The position numbers and the translations under genes were made by a program. This document shows, in pieces, positions 40,495 to 62,851 of a stretch of 64,000 nt of DNA. Origin of the DNA: an uncultured Bacilli bacterium. Its GTDB lineage: Bacteria; Bacillota_I; Bacilli_A; RF39; UBA660. How positions within the stretch are numbered: position 1 is the first letter of the stretch; every line of letters starts with the position of its first letter. Where the stretch lies: NCBI GenBank assembly GCA_934130175.1, contig CAKOXP010000004.1:16244-80243 (forward strand), written 5' to 3'. Below the pieces are notes generated by a model that saw nothing but the letters and a program-made list of their open reading frames with translations, was not told the DNA's origin and did no database searches.

Positions 40495-40571
40495 GGACCC
40501 TTAGCTCAGTTGGTTAGAGCATCCGGCTCATAACCGGGCGGTCATAGGTTCAAGTCCTATAGGGTCCACCA
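40495..40571 (+). tRNA. tRNA with anticodon CAT, most like lysidine-type tRNA-Ile2 (alternatively elongator tRNA-Met)
   Basis: The cloverleaf was checked by hand. The acceptor is GGACCCT/AGGGTCC, the D stem GCTC/GAGC, the anticodon loop CTCATAA and the T stem ATAGG/CCTAT, and CCA is encoded. It lacks initiator features. The 5' half resembles tRNA-Ile2 sequences I recall. Confidence 0.9.
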
Positions 40572-40576
40572 ACTAC

Positions 40577-40661
40577 GCGGGTATGGCGGAATTGGCAGAC
40601 GCGCTAGACTTAGGATCTAGTGCCGCAAGGCTTGCAGGTTCAACTCCTGTTACCCGCACCA
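40577..40661 (+). tRNA. tRNA-Leu (anticodon TAG)
   Basis: The acceptor is GCGGGTA/TACCCGC and the anticodon loop CTTAGGA. A long variable arm GCAAG-g-CTTGC is present. The T loop is TTCAACT, and CCA is encoded. Confidence 0.92.
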
Positions 40662-53332: not shown

Positions 53333-53366
53333 AGTCTTAGATATAGTAGAATAGGTGGTTTATAGG

Positions 53367-54179
53367 ATGAGAAAATCGGTCAAAATTACAATTATAATTG
53401 CAATGGTTGGATGTATTATTTCCATAAGTGGATCATATGCTGCCACAAATTACGTGATTAGCGCATCAAAAATTGGATATACAGATAATTCATCAATAGG
53501 TGCAGATAATGTTCAAGCAGCAATTGATGGTACTTGTACTAAGTTTTCTACTAAACTTAATAATATGATGGAACAGATGTATCCAATAGGAAGCATTTAT
53601 ATTACAACATCTATATCAGATTCTGATAAAGTCGCATCAACACTAGGAGTAGGAACATGGGAAGCATACGGAAAAGGAAAAACACTTGTAGGTGTAGATA
53701 AAAATGATAGTGATTTTGATACATCTGGAAAAACTTCAGGTTCTAAAACTGTCAAACTAGATAGTAAGAATATTCCTTCTATTACGTTTTCAGGTACCAC
53801 TGGTTCAACAGGTTCTGGTTATAGTATAGGCCATACCTGTGAAAATAGAGTCACTTCTACTGCAGGTGATCATACACACGCCTCTACAATAGGCGGTTCG
53901 TTCCTTATATTAGGAGGAAGTGTATCACATGCTCCTGCTTCTCAAGGTTTTGCATATAATACAAGTAGTGGTTGGTGGGTAAATCATAATAAGGCAATTG
54001 CTGGAATTGCTTCAGCCGGTAGTCACAACCATACAGCTACTGATTGCTATGCTTCAAGTATATCTGGTGTAGGAGCACATACACATACAATTAGTGCAAG
54101 TTACTCAAATACACAACAAACAGAAGTTAATATTATGAACCCTTATATAACAGTTTACATGTATAAAAGAACCGCCTAG
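53367..54179 (+). CDS. Secreted/anchored phage-tail-collar (tail-fibre tip)-like protein, orphan
   Basis: The signal/anchor is ITIIIAMVGCIISISGSYAA. ISASKIGYTDNSSIGADNVQAAIDG, YPIGSIYITTS...LGVGTWEAYGKGKTLVG...SGSKTVKLDSKNIPS and three GxHxH(T/A) motifs are present. The C terminus is NPYITVYMYKRTA. Confidence 0.7.
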   Translation: MRKSVKITIIIAMVGCIISISGSYAATNYVISASKIGYTDNSSIGADNVQAAIDGTCTKFSTKLNNMMEQMYPIGSIYITTSISDSDKVASTLGVGTWEAYGKGKTLVGVDKNDSDFDTSGKTSGSKTVKLDSKNIPSITFSGTTGSTGSGYSIGHTCENRVTSTAGDHTHASTIGGSFLILGGSVSHAPASQGFAYNTSSGWWVNHNKAIAGIASAGSHNHTATDCYASSISGVGAHTHTISASYSNTQQTEVNIMNPYITVYMYKRTA

Positions 54180-57536: not shown

Positions 57537-57540
57537 ATTA

Positions 57541-57567
57541 AACTAAGATAGAAATATCTTAGTTTTA
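57541..57567 (+). terminator. Rho-independent terminator after ppdK
   Basis: AACTAAGATA-gaaa-TATCTTAGTT followed by Ts. Confidence 0.8.
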
Positions 57568-57680
57568 CTTTACTTTAATTTTTGCTAATAAAAATATTAT
57601 ATAATTAATTCTACCTTTAAGAAAAAATTGATGTTATAATTAAGTAAGATGATAGTATAATTTATGTATGAGGTGATTTT

Positions 57681-59636
57681 GTGAGAAAATATAAAAACTA
57701 TTTATTATTTGTGAGTCTATTTTTTATGCCAACTATAGTCTATGCAAGTTCTGGTGATAATTCTTTTTCACTTATAACAGCTTTAGGAATCGAAGCGTTT
57801 ATTTCTATTCATATGTCAATGTTTTTCCTATTGCCACTTGCTGAACTTATCTCCTTTGAAAAGAAAAAAGAAATATTTTGGAGAATGTTTATTTTAAGGG
57901 TAGTAATATTGTTATTTTGTGACTTCTTTATCTCAACATATATAGCAATATTTGACTGTATCTTTGTATTTGTAGGTGCTTTTATCATATACCCTATTGC
58001 TCTTGCGATAAAAAAGGCAATTGATAGTCGAAGTAACAAAGTATTCACTTCTTCCATAACTAATACTATATCAAGTCAGAAAGATATTAAAAATAACGAG
58101 GTTATGACTTGTGCCAAGTGTGGTGAAAAACTAGAACCTCCATATAATTTTTGTGGTAAATGTGGTGCTAAAATAGAAGAAGTTCAAACCATTGAAATCA
58201 AAGAAAAAACAAATACAGTTAAGGTATCAGATTTCGAGCCAATCTACGCTAAATCTGAAGATGAGGTATTAGAAGATTTTATCAATAAAGAAATGAAAAA
58301 AGCCAACTTTGAGATAGATAAGAAATTAGTTCCAAAAGAAGTAGTAAAAAGAAGAAGCATATTAAGTATTCTTTTTGCAATTTTACTTTTTGTATCTATT
58401 TCTCTAATCTTTTTCCATTTTCCAATCTATACATATATTATTGACCTTATAATACTAGTTATATTTTACATAATGAGTAAAAAATACAATCTGATTAGTT
58501 ATTTGAAAAAAGAAGCAAAATCAAGACCAGATGAAAAAATATCAAATATTGTAATGTCTACAAAAACATCTTTAGTCTATGATAATTATAAAATTTTAAG
58601 GGCTGTTTTATGCTTAATCGCAACAGTTGCGCCATTAATTATTTTTAAAGATCCAAAAATAATGTATGAAAAGCAAGACAATGGTTATGCAGTTAGATTC
58701 TATACTTTTGGATTGACAAACTACAAAACAGCTACTATCCCTGAGGTGTATAATAATAAGAATGTGATTAGCCTTAGAGGTAATGCTTTTTCTAATATGC
58801 CATTTCTAGAAAAAGTAACTTTGCCAGACACAATAGTTGAAATTAGAGGTCAAGCTTTTAAAAATGATGTAAAACTAACTTCTGTAAATATTCCTAAAGA
58901 ATTAAAGTATTTAGGTGGTGGTTCTTTTTATAATTGTAAATTAATTAAAAAGATAGAATTACCAGATACTTTAACATATATGGGAGGTGAGACATTCTAT
59001 AAAGCCTCAGCTCTAACTAATATCAAATTATCAGAAAACCTAAAAGAAATTAGAGGAGATTCTTTTGAATATTGTACATCTTTAAAAGAAATAACAATTC
59101 CCGACAAGGTAAGTCGAATTGGAGGACATGCTTTTTATGGGGCTTCTTCTTTAGAAAAAGTAGAGTTAACCGAAGATAGTAGTTTAAAAGAAATAGGATC
59201 ATCTGCTTTTAGAAGGTGTGACAACCTACATACTATAACTATTCCTAGTGATACTTATGTTAATGAAAGAGCCTTTAAAGAAAGTCCAACAGTAGTGAGA
59301 CATTTTAATCAAGTTGACTATGGCAGTAGTGTTGATAGATTTAACTATGATTATAGTTCATTTATGCTGTTATATACTAATCAAAAACAGAAAGTAAATG
59401 AATATCGTAGCTATGCTAAAGTTAAAGATGCTTATTTAGAACTTGAAAGTGTAGATGTATTAGAAGATGGTAATAACTTTAATCTAAAGTATATCAATGG
59501 AGATGAAGAAATATCATTTACTTTATCAAAAATGATGCCATATAAAGAAATAAGTGATGATTTAGCAGTTGAGGTAGCAAGTGAATATAATTTTTCAAGA
59601 GTAGGTAACGTCTCACTAAATATTTATTATAATTAG
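57681..59636 (+). CDS. Polytopic membrane protein with zinc ribbon and BspA-type leucine-rich repeats
   Basis: GAGGTGA precedes GTG 57681. An N-terminal signal and TM helices are followed by CAKCGEKLEPPYNFCGKCGAKI, more TMs and ~23-aa LRR units (e.g. LEKVTLPDTIVEIRGQAFKN; LKEITIPDKVSRIGGHAFYG). Confidence 0.8.
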   Translation: MRKYKNYLLFVSLFFMPTIVYASSGDNSFSLITALGIEAFISIHMSMFFLLPLAELISFEKKKEIFWRMFILRVVILLFCDFFISTYIAIFDCIFVFVGAFIIYPIALAIKKAIDSRSNKVFTSSITNTISSQKDIKNNEVMTCAKCGEKLEPPYNFCGKCGAKIEEVQTIEIKEKTNTVKVSDFEPIYAKSEDEVLEDFINKEMKKANFEIDKKLVPKEVVKRRSILSILFAILLFVSISLIFFHFPIYTYIIDLIILVIFYIMSKKYNLISYLKKEAKSRPDEKISNIVMSTKTSLVYDNYKILRAVLCLIATVAPLIIFKDPKIMYEKQDNGYAVRFYTFGLTNYKTATIPEVYNNKNVISLRGNAFSNMPFLEKVTLPDTIVEIRGQAFKNDVKLTSVNIPKELKYLGGGSFYNCKLIKKIELPDTLTYMGGETFYKASALTNIKLSENLKEIRGDSFEYCTSLKEITIPDKVSRIGGHAFYGASSLEKVELTEDSSLKEIGSSAFRRCDNLHTITIPSDTYVNERAFKESPTVVRHFNQVDYGSSVDRFNYDYSSFMLLYTNQKQKVNEYRSYAKVKDAYLELESVDVLEDGNNFNLKYINGDEEISFTLSKMMPYKEISDDLAVEVASEYNFSRVGNVSLNIYYN

Positions 59637-59651
59637 ATGGAGGCCTTAGAA

Positions 59652-61400
59652 ATGGAAAACAAATACATACATTTATTATATGTTCCAACAATGGCTTGTA
59701 ATATGGCTTGTAAGTATTGTTACTTAGAGGATAATACTAAAGATGAATTTATGAAACACGATTCTTTAGAAACACTAGATTATGCTATAAAGAAATTCAA
59801 AGGTGCCAATGTTATTCCTTTTAATATTTCTCTTCATGGAGGAGAAGTAACGACTCTTTCTCATGATGAATTTTATAATCTAATTAAATATATTGATACA
59901 TATTATAATACAAATAAGAAGCTAATTACCAATGCCGGTTTCAAAGTAGGAAGACCTCATATAAAAACTAATTTATATGGAATAGACAAACATATAGATA
60001 CAATAAGAGAGTTTAATGTATCTATATCCGGAAGTCTTGATTTGCCTCTTTCATTACACGATGAGTACCGAACTACTAAGGGTGGTAAAAAAACTTTAGA
60101 TAAAATTTTTGAAAACATAAAACTAATGGAAGATATTCCAAATAAAAAGAAAGTTTCTGCAACTATCTTTAAGGAGCATTATATTCATACTGATGAGATA
60201 ATTAAAGATATTAAATATTTAAATTCTAATACTTGCCTAGATATGAATGATTTCAATTTCATGATTGGTTTTGATTATAATTCAAATGGAATTTTACATC
60301 ACATTAGTGAAGATGAACAAGTTGATTTTTATAAAAGAATGCATAAAGAATTTGATGGTACTGATTTAGATTCTGGTGTGAATGGAGCTTGGTTTGACGA
60401 GTTTGGTCCAGACTATTGCTCAAATTGTGATAATTGTGGTGAAAAATTTTTCTTACTAGAAAAAAATGGTGATATCTACTCCTGCGTTAGAGGTCAAAAA
60501 AATCCTAATTACTATTATGGAAATATTTATAATAACTCAGTAGAAGAGATTCTTAATACAGCCTATTTAAAGATTTTCAAAAACCATAACCTTGAGAGAT
60601 TTAATGAAGACTGTAAGAATTGTGGTTACTTGTATCTATGTAAAACAGGATGCCCTTTCGTAAAAAACAATTATAATACTAATAAGAGTTATACTTGTAA
60701 ATTGCAACAACAAATGTATAAAGATAGAAATTATTTAAAAGATAGTTATAATGATGAATTTGTATATCAGTATATTTCAAAAATGAGATTAGAAGATGCC
60801 AGTAAATATATGCCTGAAAAGAATTCTAATAACAACTATCCAAAATTAGAAGAAATAATTGCAAAAGATTCCAATTTAAAGTATATATATGATGATGACT
60901 CATTTATTTTAAGTATAGATGGAGTTGATTATAAACTAGAGTCACAAATTATAAAGAAAACAAGGGATATAATCTACATTACACCTAAATCTAAAATAGA
61001 AATATATATGAAGAAAAATCTTATAAATAAATTATCAGATTACCCAGAAAATAATTCATTATATATAATGCTACTTTCTGGATCATTAGTAACATATGGA
61101 GATGAAAATAGAACTAAACAAAGACATATTTCAACACTACAAGTATATAAAGGCGTCCTTGATAAAACCGCTTCATCCAAGAAAGATTATTATAAATATG
61201 ATATAGCAGGCTTTTTAAAAGAGTATAAAGATATGTATTCTTCTATTAGTCCCAATAATATGTTTTTTACAACTTCAAGTTTAAGAGACTATCATTATAC
61301 AAAGCAAAAAAATAATGCATATTATCATATTCAGGCAATTAATTTGCCATTTCAAAATATTGAATTTTATTATTTAGATAAGGAGTTAAAAAATGAATAA
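59652..61400 (+). CDS. Radical SAM enzyme with SPASM domain and unassigned ~225-aa C-terminal domain
   Basis: CNMACKYC (CX3CX2C), HGGEVT, CGEKFFLLEKNGDIYSC (CX10GX4C) and CKNCGYLYLCKTGC (CX2CX5CX3C) are present. GGAGG lies 8 nt upstream of ATG 59652, and ATG 59637 is an alternative start. Confidence 0.88.
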   Translation: MENKYIHLLYVPTMACNMACKYCYLEDNTKDEFMKHDSLETLDYAIKKFKGANVIPFNISLHGGEVTTLSHDEFYNLIKYIDTYYNTNKKLITNAGFKVGRPHIKTNLYGIDKHIDTIREFNVSISGSLDLPLSLHDEYRTTKGGKKTLDKIFENIKLMEDIPNKKKVSATIFKEHYIHTDEIIKDIKYLNSNTCLDMNDFNFMIGFDYNSNGILHHISEDEQVDFYKRMHKEFDGTDLDSGVNGAWFDEFGPDYCSNCDNCGEKFFLLEKNGDIYSCVRGQKNPNYYYGNIYNNSVEEILNTAYLKIFKNHNLERFNEDCKNCGYLYLCKTGCPFVKNNYNTNKSYTCKLQQQMYKDRNYLKDSYNDEFVYQYISKMRLEDASKYMPEKNSNNNYPKLEEIIAKDSNLKYIYDDDSFILSIDGVDYKLESQIIKKTRDIIYITPKSKIEIYMKKNLINKLSDYPENNSLYIMLLSGSLVTYGDENRTKQRHISTLQVYKGVLDKTASSKKDYYKYDIAGFLKEYKDMYSSISPNNMFFTTSSLRDYHYTKQKNNAYYHIQAINLPFQNIEFYYLDKELKNE

Positions 61401-61749
61401 AGAACCAGTTACATATGCAGAATTAATAAGAAAAAAAAGATGTATTGAATTAACTAATTACTATGATTTAACAGAAGAAGATTTAGATAAAATTTATACA
61501 TTTTTAGAAGAAAATAAAAAAGGAATTGTTAGATGTGGTGATCAAAATATTGCCCTAGTAGTTAATAACGACATTAAAAATGCCACTTTTATAATCGCAA
61601 GTAAAATTTCCTCATCAGTCGATGGAATTGTGATGAGTAACGATGCATTTAAAATAATACCACATTATGAACCATCCCCATACGATGGACATAGTGGTGG
61701 TTCATCTTCTAATAATAACAATAACAACAATAATAATAACAATAGATAG
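61393..61749 (+). CDS. 118-aa protein with C-terminal Gly/Ser linker and N11 tail (candidate radical-SAM substrate or partner)
   Basis: AAGGAG lies 7 nt upstream. The ATG overlaps the rSAM stop (ATGAATAA). The C terminus is PHYEPSPYDGHSGGSSSNNNNNNNNNNNR. Confidence 0.7.
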   Translation: MNKEPVTYAELIRKKRCIELTNYYDLTEEDLDKIYTFLEENKKGIVRCGDQNIALVVNNDIKNATFIIASKISSSVDGIVMSNDAFKIIPHYEPSPYDGHSGGSSSNNNNNNNNNNNR

Positions 61750-61761
61750 GAGGTATAAAAA

Positions 61762-62772
61762 GTGCCATTAATATCTGAAAAGTTTCATGAAGAAAAATTA
61801 AAAAAACTTGGTATCAATATCAAAACAAGTTATATAGTTGAAAATAATATTTTAGAAATGAATACTAATAGTAATCATAATGATAATGTTGTTAAGGGAT
61901 TAAGATGTAAAAAACAATATTATATTAATAATAAGCTAAAACATGAAGAATTTAAATTTGATACTAGAATAGAATATACTTTCCTTTCAAGTAAAGAAGA
62001 AGATAAAGAATATAGTTGTCCTAATTGCGGAATGCATTCAAAGCTAAAAGATTTTCTTGATGGTTGTCCATACTGTGGAACCTGTTTTAACATTGATTAT
62101 GTAGATAAAGATATGGGAAGCAAATACTACTATGACAGAGTTTTAAGAAATCCAACCTATAGATTAGTAACGGCCTTAGTTGATATTATTATCAGTCTAT
62201 TACTATCATTTCTTTTCATAAGATATACTTCACGTACCTTTAATTCATATGATATATCCAAAATTTTTATCTATGGTATGATTTTAGCACTTATTCTTTA
62301 TTACTTCTTTTATATAATTGATGCTTATATCGTACTTGAACCAATAAAAAGATATAAAGATAGAGAAAACCAAAAACAAATAGAATTCTTTGACAGAACA
62401 AAAATAGATAAAAAAGAATTTTTCAATAATTTAAATTATGAAATAGCAAACAAATACTACAATAATTCTGATATTATCGACTATGATATCTTGGATTTTG
62501 ACAGTTATAATGAATTTATGAAAAATGATTCTTTATATATTTTAGTAAAAGCTTATGTAAGAATTGTTAGTTTTAAAAATGATAAATTTATATCTAAGTA
62601 TATAACCGATACTTATTTATTAAAAAGGGTTAATGATTCTATTGAGTTAAAAGATAACGTAAATGTTATAAGCTGTCATAATTGTGGAGCATCTATTGAT
62701 ATTACTAAGAAAGAGTGTGACTATTGTCATTCTAAAGTTAAATATTTCCAAAAATGGATATTAGAAAAATAA
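61762..62772 (+). CDS. Membrane protein with N- and C-terminal zinc ribbons flanking two TM helices
   Basis: AGGAGG lies 8 nt upstream of GTG 61762. CPNCGMHS...CPYCGTCF is followed by two TM helices (LVTALVDIIISLLLSFLFI; IFIYGMILALILYYFFYIIDAYIVL) and CHNCGASI...CDYCHSKV. Confidence 0.75.
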   Translation: MPLISEKFHEEKLKKLGINIKTSYIVENNILEMNTNSNHNDNVVKGLRCKKQYYINNKLKHEEFKFDTRIEYTFLSSKEEDKEYSCPNCGMHSKLKDFLDGCPYCGTCFNIDYVDKDMGSKYYYDRVLRNPTYRLVTALVDIIISLLLSFLFIRYTSRTFNSYDISKIFIYGMILALILYYFFYIIDAYIVLEPIKRYKDRENQKQIEFFDRTKIDKKEFFNNLNYEIANKYYNNSDIIDYDILDFDSYNEFMKNDSLYILVKAYVRIVSFKNDKFISKYITDTYLLKRVNDSIELKDNVNVISCHNCGASIDITKKECDYCHSKVKYFQKWILEK

Positions 62773-62794
62773 TTATTATATATATTAAAAGTTA

Positions 62795-62818
62795 AAAGCT
62801 AAATCTAGCTTTTTTTTA
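62795..62818 (+). terminator. Rho-independent terminator closing the rSAM operon
   Basis: AAAGCTA-aatc-TAGCTTT followed by a T-run. Confidence 0.8.
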
Positions 62819-62851
62819 TTTTTTTGTTTATAATGATAATGGTGATGATAA

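Follow-up and report, generated by a model that had tools for sequence, protein, structure and literature searches.

We analysed a 64,000-nt stretch of DNA from an uncultured Bacilli bacterium (RF39; UBA660; GCA_934130175.1, contig CAKOXP010000004.1, 16,244-80,243 of the forward strand), here called the window, and in it four close-packed genes, g1 to g4, grouped around a radical S-adenosylmethionine (SAM)/SPASM enzyme, g2. The product of g3 ends in a serine followed by a run of asparagines, and this combination of the enzyme with an adjacent Ser-(Asn)n tail recurs across phyla and, in shorter form, in phage tail modules. The tail is probably the substrate of g2, which would then be a protein maturase. 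A wider proposal is that a dedicated SPASM family with a docking domain iteratively modifies poly-Asn tails into a new cross-linked or desaturated structure, a phylum-spanning and unrecognised modification used in bacterial membrane-associated complexes (e.g., with a leucine-rich repeat (LRR) surface protein) and at phage tail-fibre tips; we see the chances for and against this wider proposal as evenly balanced. An earlier note on this DNA had suggested an undescribed modification system made of all four genes. Our results support such a system around the SPASM enzyme and place its core in the enzyme and the Ser-(Asn)n tail instead of the four genes. The poly-Asn ending, quoted in that note and not singled out, is the central feature of the system.

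The features of the enzyme and of its tail protein are the following:
59652-61400, + strand: g2, 582 aa, radical SAM/SPASM enzyme
60417-60698, + strand: SPASM region of g2 (residues 256-349), with eight family-invariant Cys
60729-61397, + strand: family-specific C-terminal domain of g2 (residues ~360-582)
61393-61749, + strand: g3, 118 aa, predicted cytoplasmic protein with a folded N-terminal domain and a disordered tail
61708-61746, + strand: Ser106-(Asn)11-Arg118 tail of g3, proposed substrate or recognition element of g2

Pairing of the enzyme with poly-asparagine tails

The g3 protein ends SGGSSS-N11-R, the run being S106-N107..N117-R118, and its ATG overlaps the g2 stop by 8 nt within ATGAATAA; the length, overlap and ending are all as had been described before. 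Every one of 96 homologues of g3 is unnamed or 'hypothetical', and the ending '...SGGSSS-N(11-15)-R' is kept in essentially all of them, even at 30-40 % identity in the folded part. An AF2 model of g3 has an overall predicted local distance difference test score (pLDDT) of 86.6, the values being ~96 for residues 10-95 and 51-56 for the tail; residues 8-90 are modelled as two helices and five strands, and the tail is predicted to be disordered. Foldseek searches with this fold gave no match at E < 0.05 in PDB and BFVD, and none in PDB at E < 0.6, so that the fold of g3 is neither of the PqqD or RiPP recognition element (RRE) type (RiPP, ribosomally synthesised and post-translationally modified peptide) nor of the tail-fibre type. 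The only PDB sequence matches of the tail were crystallised MBP fusion proteins (e.g., 4jkm_D, 3hst_A, 1y4c_A), in which a linker Ser3-Asn10, an engineered flexible spacer, resembles the natural SSS-N(n).

We defined the system as an enzyme with the family C-terminal domain together with an adjacent same-strand open reading frame (ORF) ending in [S/T]-(Asn)n, with n of at least 9, then 0-1 residue, the run being rarely G-interrupted. Both features were found in 122 of 130 non-redundant enzymes (locus counts, here and below, are not phylogenetically independent), and in the window, where g2 has the C-terminal domain and g3 ends in S-N11-R. The distant loci come from Betaproteobacteria, Archangium, Maricurvus, Pseudoalteromonas, Psychromonas, Epsilonproteobacteria, Bacteroidales, Corynebacterium and Oscillospiraceae, and nearly all have a small ORF beside the enzyme ending [S/T]-N(10-20)-G. 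The pairing thus spans Firmicutes, Proteobacteria, Myxococcota, Bacteroidota and Actinobacteria, at 22-70 % GC, many loci being from metagenome-assembled genomes (MAGs) with unreliable taxonomic labels. In the 122 paired loci, the Asn run is 9-28 residues long (median 13) and is preceded by Ser in 118, Thr in 3 and Ala in 1; it is followed by Arg in 76 (the clade of the window), Gly in 19, nothing in 13 and Ser, His or Ala in 10, the remaining 4 being G-interrupted ends. Five of the eight unpaired enzymes lie at contig ends, one has an insertion sequence (IS) directly 3' of the enzyme gene and two are prophage forms. The IS case is a Bacteroidia MAG (locus L087, 7800-8978, JAUIJC010000039.1) with a transposase-like ORF directly after the enzyme, in the position expected for the Asn-tail gene; it looks as if the insertion had removed or displaced the partner.

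The association holds in both directions. Among 7333 ORFs of at least 40 aa in these loci, 140 have such an Asn end, and all 140 adjoin the enzyme. A reverse scan with the bare DNA pattern (AAY)10-GGN-TRR over 185,579 genomes returned 80 loci, of which 62 have a strong same-strand match to the enzyme family within 610 bp and 2 a partial match at the edge of the block; the remainder consist of 9 too near the edge to assess, 3 resembling orphaned members and 4 unrelated proteins. About 64 of the 71 assessable loci (~90 %) hence carry the enzyme.

The codons of the run speak for the amino acid and not for the DNA. AAT and AAC alternate irregularly at every GC content, with an AAC fraction of 0.36 at low, 0.46 at middle and 0.57 at high GC, and the longest same-codon stretch averages ~3. 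Such a pattern would result from selection against slippage together with selection, at the level of the protein, for an amino-acid homopolymer. Compared without their tails, proteins of different phyla reach an hhalign probability of only 4 % between their N-terminal parts; as these parts have no detectable homology, the tail is the sole element that the proteins have in common. A shared 'IDG...SN..F' motif in the N-terminal domains, suspected by eye, was dropped on the same hhalign result. In Oscillibacter sp. MSJ-31 (locus L114, 5944-8031, CAVCDZ010000025.1), a single 695-aa ORF contains the enzyme with its C-terminal domain and a g3-like segment ending ...SFT-N10-G, which could be a true Rosetta-stone fusion or else an artefact of assembly or of a frameshift.

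The enzyme was also detected by tblastn in phage genomes. Campylobacter phage CAM-P21 carries it (475 bits against phrog_1802) in a tail module with the order tail fibre, phrog_10241, enzyme, tail assembly chaperone, second fibre-like protein and tail sheath, and the tail fibre ends ...APSGSTNNNNY. More generally, in Campylobacter and Helicobacter phages the enzyme sits in tail modules after fibres ending, for example, ...SSNNNNY or ...STGNNF, while related prophage and IMG/VR fibres with differing receptor-binding parts end ..GSSNNNNY, ..YSCNNNNN, ..YSTGNNF, ..TSMGNNS, ..PSSGNNF or ..SCNNNNGG. Because the fibres beside the phage enzymes end in this way, the enzyme family tracks Asn-run C-termini in phage structural proteins too. 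In the phage forms, the run is preceded by Ser, Thr, Cys, Gly or Arg. On IMG/VR viral contigs of 94-263 kb, small ORFs two genes 5' of the enzyme end ..FSNNNNNNLAGNV, ..NNNGNNNNSCSGGW or ..SSNNNNNNRG. Plasmids gave one match only, on a Campylobacter megaplasmid. A literature search on radical SAM and Campylobacter prophage tail fibres returned nothing relevant, the paper on CP220/CPt10 dealing with other radical-SAM genes.

Two viral contigs have a different content. In IMG/VR UViG_3300010935_000101 (locus L173, 3746-4264), a 172-aa ORF upstream of the enzyme ends Cys-rich (...CALCASCSGCPCSYSFPACKRD...) and may represent a different type of substrate. The viral-classified contig UViG_3300029664_000120 (L175; IMG/VR, 44.9 kb, 45 % GC) has g1-like, enzyme, g3-like (N14R) and g4-like genes, and their neighbours resemble AAA ATPases and not phage structural genes.

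The enzyme family and its characterised relatives

The assignment of g2 as a radical SAM/SPASM enzyme in the earlier note was borne out by matches above cut-off to the radical SAM domain (PF04055, 41.4 bits vs 29.5), to Fer4_12 and to SPASM (PF13186, 28.2 vs 21.5; TIGR04085, 44.1 vs 27). The CX3CX2C motif (C16/C20/C23) is invariant in the family. The family alignment also contains eight invariant Cys in SPASM arrangement (C256, C262, C278, C321, C324, C330, C334 and C349), which align with the SPASM region of anSMEcpe, an anaerobic sulfatase-maturating enzyme (anSME). These 3 + 8 cluster-motif positions are the only invariant Cys of the alignment, from which ligands can be assigned only with a structure. 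Epimerases of the PoyD/YydG type need a non-ligand Cys as hydrogen donor, and the lack of any further invariant Cys argues weakly against such an activity for g2.

Thousands of relatives of g2 are present in databases, mostly unnamed, and the listed ones are full-length proteins of ~580 aa. An exhaustive profile-free search recovered distant full-length homologues from 51 % down to 29 % identity, all of which retain the ~220-aa C-terminal domain with the invariant motifs YGDE.R.K..H and NA[FY]YH.Q..N.P. This domain has no Pfam match at E <= 1 and lies outside every PDB sequence or profile match. The closest structure, anSMEcpe (4K36/4K37, E 8e-19), aligns only with residues 10-361.

The anSME family (TIGR03942) is also the best NCBIfam match, nearly full length, at 93.1 bits against a curated cut-off of 349.45. 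In the study of 4K36-4K39, the Asp directly after an auxiliary-cluster Cys (D277 in anSMEcpe) is said to be catalytic. A profile alignment places C276-D277 of anSMEcpe ('PCDF' of 4K37) opposite the family motif 'C-[H/V]-R-x-Q', in which Arg and Gln are invariant and which reads C278-V279-R280-G281-Q282 in the window. No sulfatase and no C/S-x-P/A-x-R motif was found in the flanks of the window or among the families conserved around the enzyme in the 80 closest loci (see below). Membership of g2 in the anSME family was rejected on the score below cut-off, the Val/His at the Asp position, the missing sulfatase and the C-terminal domain without counterpart.

The second-best NCBIfam match is DynA (88.4 bits vs 450). 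All curated SPASM peptide maturases stay below cut-off, including DynA, DarE/W, PapB, CefB, AmcB, YhhB, HxsB, GrrM, CbpB, QhpD, MftC and SCIFF, and the same is true of the distant homologues P0341, P0345 and P0352. The alignment of g2 begins at profile positions 80-97 of CefB, HxsB, TIGR04463, not_ScfB and StsB, with the cluster motif of g2 at residue 16. Since the ~80-95-aa N-terminal region that is skipped in these five profiles is what we take to be their RRE, g2 would have no N-terminal RRE. The phage family phrog_1802 (PHROGs v4, 'radical SAM domain-containing protein') has the full-length architecture of g2 including the C-terminal domain: residues 11-581 align on profile positions 49-555 of 556 (E 1.9e-38, 133.6 bits). 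From these comparisons, g2 belongs to an uncurated radical SAM/SPASM family equivalent to phrog_1802, itself uncharacterised and placed in the category 'other'; its phage partners have 2-7 Asn as against the long cellular runs.

Several characterised systems share part of this arrangement. Like g2, anSME/AtsB (TIGR03942; 4K36-4K39) combines a radical-SAM core with a SPASM domain holding two fully Cys-ligated auxiliary clusters and acts, as we propose for g2, on a folded protein without an N-terminal RRE; g2 differs by the Val/His in place of the catalytic Asp, by its additional domain of 220 aa and by having a Ser-(Asn)n tail as partner instead of C/S-x-P/A-x-R. PapB, GrrM/OscB, HxsB, CefB and the CXXX-repeat family are, like g2, SPASM enzymes encoded beside a substrate with a short repeated unit of which each copy is modified, and TvgB, the poly-cyclopropylglycine synthase, is another repeat-modifying SPASM maturase. 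A homopolymer tail could be seen as the limiting case of such substrates, with a period of one residue. The matches of g2 to these repeat-modifying maturases are weak (NCBIfam, 54-64 bits, far below cut-offs), and the tail system differs from them in having no Cys, aromatic or His partner residue, no leader/RRE logic, no protease or exporter and, as partner, a folded protein or a phage tail fibre. The SPASM enzyme QhpD cross-links a small protein, the gamma subunit of quinohemoprotein amine dehydrogenase, whose gene lies in its own operon, and offers a precedent for a small protein, and not a natural product, as SPASM target. The links made by QhpD are thioethers from Cys to Asp/Glu, in a subunit that contains Cys and belongs to a periplasmic enzyme, whereas no dehydrogenase genes are present here and the tail has no Cys; its family matches g2 weakly (TIGR03906, 43.8 bits).

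Asparagine itself has been a target in other systems. DynA makes a C-C bond to an Asn beta-carbon, and an N-C bond, so that Asn C-beta is a feasible target of radical-SAM chemistry; the substrates of DynA and DarE are short aromatic-rich cores, in contrast to Asn tails without an aromatic partner. The proteusin epimerases of the PoyD type produce D-Asn in polytheonamides, using a non-ligand Cys as hydrogen donor. They share with the proposed system an iterative action along an Asn-rich peptide, and differ by their NHLP-leader precursor and by the Cys, no invariant one existing in the g2 family beyond the 11 cluster-motif positions.

In Pfam (2025), NCBIfam (June 2026) and PADLOC, there is no model for the enzyme family, for its C-terminal domain, for the tail proteins or for the partners. 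No protein of the operon reached a curated family in these collections beyond generic domains; four proteins of an already characterised family or pathway had been one of the two outcomes that, according to the earlier note, would refute it. Full-text literature searches found nothing tying radical SAM, SPASM or RiPPs to poly-Asn; most subscription journals were outside their reach, so that a prior description is possible. To our knowledge, no radical SAM/SPASM enzyme targets a homopolymer or an Asn run, and we know of no precedent for radical-SAM chemistry in the maturation of phage tail fibres. Judged from sequence, what we describe would be of a known kind, a SPASM maturase with its cognate substrate, with the homopolymeric substrate, the docking domain, the absence of RiPP accessories and the use on phage tail fibres as its new traits.

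Proposed modification of the tail and its alternatives

The case for g2 acting on the tail is made by the cluster motifs, the tail predicted to be disordered and accessible, the association in both directions, the translational coupling, the fusion and the phage parallels. We propose that the CX3CX2C cluster, whose motif is present, would cleave SAM to the 5'-deoxyadenosyl radical, as in the rest of the superfamily. The disordered Asn tail of g3, made 1:1 with g2, would dock on the 220-aa C-terminal domain of the enzyme, which may take the place of an RRE, and a hydrogen would be abstracted either from the Ser that precedes the run or from an Asn, at C-beta or C-alpha. As in the sulfatase maturase, electrons might be led off by both auxiliary clusters, which are fully ligated, and the net result would be an oxidative modification, a cross-link or a desaturation, probably repeated along the Asn run. 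In Firmicutes-type loci, the modified g3 may act at the membrane with g1 and g4, other clades using unrelated small membrane proteins, and some phages might apply the same enzyme to the short Asn-run ends of their tail-fibre proteins. An oxidative modification is the outcome that we favour, and any particular chemistry has much less of our confidence than the claim that the tail is the substrate. The phage tail-fibre context suggests, by analogy, a structural or binding role for the modification rather than that of a diffusible or secreted antibiotic.

If the tail is indeed modified, this would define a new protein modification and a new enzyme subfamily, and would explain a cassette that is both conserved and abundant in uncultured Bacilli of the human gut. 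Thioethers, cyclophanes, ethers, epimers and cyclopropanes are among the new peptide chemistries to which radical SAM/SPASM enzymes have led time and again; here, a run of a single amino acid would be a genetically encoded substrate for radical chemistry, with a structural or receptor-binding role common to cells and viruses, and radical-SAM chemistry would be linked to tail-fibre maturation. For annotation, a C-terminal S-N(>=9) end beside a ~580-aa SPASM protein could serve as a rule. The system is compact (enzyme and tail) and occurs in cultured organisms, namely Waltera, Trichlorobacter thiogenes, Archangium violaceum, Corynebacterium amycolatum, Pseudoalteromonas luteoviolacea and Campylobacter phage CAM-P21, and is therefore directly testable.

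Several points weigh against a modification of the tail by g2. As read from sequence, the case is one of co-occurrence alone, and the chemistry is a guess because the tail has neither Cys nor an aromatic partner for the known SPASM cross-links; a Ser/Asn motif is nonetheless chemically reasonable, given that TqqB makes a Thr-Gln ether in 'TQQ' peptides and that dynobactin has a link at Asn C-beta. A folded 118-aa g3 produced in 1:1 coupling is unlike a typical RiPP precursor and could have a subunit role instead. The phage forms have just 2-7 Asn, and the long cellular run needs further explanation. Roles for g1 and g4 are unsupported by homology. In three loci, L182, L211 and L234, a tail gene was found without an enzyme in the 8-kb block, and L173 is the only phage locus with the enzyme that has no Asn-run neighbour.

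A subunit role deserves to be set out in full: g3 would be an obligate accessory subunit or adaptor, its Asn tail a tether, plug or pseudo-substrate, and the true substrate g1, g4, a phage tail component or a small molecule. The 1:1 translational coupling and the well-folded N-terminal domain of g3 fit this as well, the L114 fusion of enzyme and tail is equally compatible with it, and Ser3-Asn10 does serve as a linker in the crystallised MBP fusions. An adaptor should however conserve its folded part, and it is the N-terminal domains that are non-homologous between phyla and the tail that is universal; moreover, in phages the Asn run ends the structural protein itself, and a plain spacer would need neither the preceding Ser (118/122) nor the extreme C-terminal position. 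We regard this explanation as unlikely. That the Asn-rich end of g3 is a classical RiPP core, cleaved off and exported as an antimicrobial or signal with g1 and g4 in export or immunity, seems to us decidedly unlikely. It is common for SPASM maturases to act on repetitive cores, peptide maturases (such as DynA, DarE/DarW, PapB, CefB, GrrM and HxsB) make up nearly all the weak NCBIfam matches of g2, and the pair is accompanied by membrane proteins in every cellular clade; yet a protease, an ABC exporter or an RRE is conserved in no clade, the would-be precursor gene lies 3' of the enzyme and overlaps it, an invariant tail behind a variable 'leader' is the opposite of RiPP logic, and the phage tail-fibre setting favours the modification of an intact protein.

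A module of anti-phage defence, abortive infection or toxicity, in which a radical-SAM enzyme and membrane proteins kill or protect the cell, would account for the patchy spread over phyla, the varied genomic contexts, the small adjoining membrane proteins and the weak match of the radical-SAM core to pVip. We find it very unlikely, given that PADLOC-DB 2.0 gives only a 30.9-bit pVip match (first 95 residues of g2) and a 12.5-bit match for g3, that the enzyme is 67-92 % identical in the 80 closest loci, far above its neighbours, and that phages carry it within their own tail modules, the megaplasmid being the sole plasmid match. More improbable still is a divergent anSME that makes formylglycine on a sulfatase elsewhere or on the Ser preceding the run. 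This family does supply the top match of g2 in NCBIfam (93 bits over nearly the full length) as well as in PDB (4K36/4K37, E 8e-19), and anSMEs oxidise both Ser and Cys, the residues found before the run as Ser in cellular and Ser/Cys among phage forms; on the other side stand the score of 93 against a cut-off of 349, the Val/His at the catalytic Asp position, the lack of a sulfatase or C/S-x-P/A-x-R nearby, and the 220-aa domain and Asn run, neither of which it would account for. Its Ser-to-formylglycine version remains a sub-case of the proposal that the tail is the substrate. Finally, the window has 27 % GC and Asn runs are common in AT-rich genomes, which could make the run a low-complexity artefact and the operon a chance juxtaposition. 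We count this as refuted by the presence of the run, with interspersed AAT/AAC, beside enzymes at up to 70 % GC, by the 140/140 Asn-run ORF ends that adjoin the enzyme and by the ~90 % of pattern-selected sites that have it.

The operon in the window and its membrane partners

Around the pair of g2 and g3, the window contains the following features:
57540-57565, + strand: AT-rich hairpin with an 11 bp stem, then a T-rich stretch; likely ppdK terminator and upstream boundary of the cassette
57632-57661, + strand: possible promoter region, weak, with the extended -10-like TGTTATAAT at 57632-57640 and a second TATAAT at 57656-57661
57681-59636, + strand: g1, 651 aa, ORF at the coordinates given beforehand
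61762-62772, + strand: g4, 336 aa, two-transmembrane (TM) protein with two zinc ribbons
62794-62825, + strand: hairpin (62794-62813, 8-bp stem) and U8AU7; likely terminator and downstream boundary

All four close-packed + strand ORFs of the earlier note are present at the positions that it gave. The ATG of g2 at 59652 lies 15 nt past the g1 stop with GGAGG 7 nt upstream, again as noted before; the mechanical ORF opens at 59637, and homologues favour 59652. The g4 gene starts with GTG and also has GGAGG 7 nt upstream. The flanking genes encode the pyruvate phosphate dikinase (ppdK) and PfkB kinase (pfkB) already named, to which we add thymidine kinase (tdk); none is a sulfatase, in agreement with the earlier reading. 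The cassette has 26 % GC and the window 27 %, and an Rfam search (E <= 1) of the cassette and the region before it returned zero RNA elements.

The cassette had been described as bounded by two clean intrinsic terminators. Both hairpins exist, and it is plausible that they are terminators; their stems are AT-rich, and a consensus terminator scan did not call them. The upstream hairpin folds at -10.8 kcal/mol (z = -4.1, with 0/200 shuffles folding equally well), and the downstream one at -6.5 kcal/mol with z = -1.5, i.e., not much better than shuffles, with U8AU7 directly 3'. The possible promoter elements, read by eye, sit in the 115-nt gap 5' of g1; a promoter scan did not list the 57632-57661 region, where no -35 element is evident.

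Conservation of the four genes was measured on bacterial assemblies, with one genome per species, in which 219 stretches encode a g2 relative. The best 80 of these, used for the cassette statistics, consist for the most part of MAGs or CAG bins under the labels Bacilli, Tenericutes, Mollicutes, Mycoplasma or Clostridium; many come from human gut metagenomes, and some are Lachnospiraceae (Waltera, Acetatifactor). By tblastn and ORF clustering, exactly four gene families are conserved, in 79, 79, 77 and 70 of the 80 loci, the next family being found in 9; the shortfalls from 80 are at least partly due to contig ends. The order g1-g2-g3-g4 is kept in essentially all of these Firmicutes-type loci while the flanks vary, so that the synteny test, one of the two that the earlier note had named as able to refute it, came out in its favour, and no fifth conserved family, sulfatase or other, surrounds the enzyme. 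Such an arrangement is far beyond chance expectation. Identity across the 80 loci is highest for g2 (67-92 %), with 38-80 % for g3, 46-82 % for g4 and 37-73 % for g1, and the overlap of the g2 stop with the g3 start is kept in 66 of 72 loci.

The membrane segments, zinc ribbons and LRR repeats proposed for the two membrane proteins were recovered as well. In g1 we found five TM-like segments, a CxxC..CxxC ribbon (C144/C147/C158/C161; Zn_Ribbon_1, 23.2 bits, slightly below the Pfam cut-off of 25) and a BspA-type LRR domain (LRR_5, E 2.6e-47) at ~340-540, C-terminal to the last TM segment. In g4, ribbons near both ends (C86/89/102/105 and C305/308/319/322) belong one to each of the two soluble parts, and the TM segments are 135-153 and 168-186. 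The order of the TM segments would place the LRR domain of g1 outside the cell and the ribbons of both g1 and g4 in the cytoplasm. The model of g4 is moderate (pLDDT 71.5), and its C-terminal soluble domain weakly resembles NTF2/Tim44/VirB8 (matches E 0.05-1); we take an NTF2/Tim44-like fold as a lead suggested by the model, not as a result.

As members of the system, g1 and g4 hold for Firmicutes-type loci, g4 for a subset, and are replaced elsewhere by unrelated small membrane proteins. The g1 gene is present in 79 of the 80 close loci and absent from proteobacterial, Bacteroidota and actinobacterial ones. Presence of g4 is limited to Firmicutes-type loci labelled Bacilli, Tenericutes, Clostridium or Lachnospiraceae, and it is missing beside g1, the enzyme and g3 in some other loci of Firmicutes type, which carry the labels Clostridia, Clostridium, Oscillospiraceae, Lachnospiraceae or Bacilli. 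The partner position is occupied by a membrane protein of 153-212 aa in beta- and gammaproteobacterial and Bacteroidales loci, by one of ~270 aa in Pseudoalteromonas, Psychromonas and some others, and by a 229-265-aa protein with an N-terminal TM segment in Corynebacterium; such a partner could be assigned in 15 of 25 non-Firmicutes loci. No homology was detected among g1, g4, the two proteobacterial families and the actinobacterial family, save for the zinc ribbon common to g1 and g4. The recurrent third component in many cellular loci is hence a membrane protein of a non-conserved family, and the LRR and zinc-ribbon membrane proteins g1 and g4 are clade-specific partners. The last residue of the tail tracks the partner set, being Arg with g1 and g4 and Gly without them, a correlation that is confounded with phylogeny.

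Some loci deserve mention for their partner genes. Uliginosibacterium sp. 31-16 (L082, 4858-5987) has a tandem duplicate of the small membrane partner (164 + 212 aa) upstream of the enzyme, with 'GPRY[LV]ICG' in both copies and 'ERFPTGARK' in the 164-aa copy only. Among the tail genes found without an enzyme, that of L182 (6394-6876) has an N-terminal part of proteobacterial type, and L234 (5399-6605) also contains a 286-aa membrane partner; both are orphans, remnants or split systems. In two Acutalibacteraceae/Eubacteriales MAGs (L101, 8010-9878; L211, 5470-7481), a potassium-channel-like membrane protein is encoded directly after the Asn tail; L101 then has another radical SAM/SPASM gene, shorter than the first (346 aa), and L211 apparently lacks the main enzyme. 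As to labels, contig JAUDUO010000003.1 (L151/L196), listed as Staphylococcus chromogenes M79.2, has 58 % GC and a Corynebacterium-like gene content and is probably a contamination or mislabel, and RF39-like cassettes in bins labelled Roseburia, Acidaminococcus, Paratractidigestivibacter and Muribaculaceae look similarly misplaced.

Elsewhere in the window, three genes upstream of the cassette, 53355-54179 (+ strand) encodes a secreted protein that has a hydrophobic segment at the N-terminus, matches the phage baseplate Gp10 C-terminal domain (PF21939, E 3e-25) as well as PHROG tail-fibre and baseplate families, and has no Asn run at its C-terminus. Two adjoining tRNA genes lie at 40495-40568 and 40577-40658 (+ strand; Rfam 72 and 58 bits). 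The coding strand is strongly biased: window positions 1-54000 contain 41 ORFs of 150 aa or more, and 40 of these are on the + strand.

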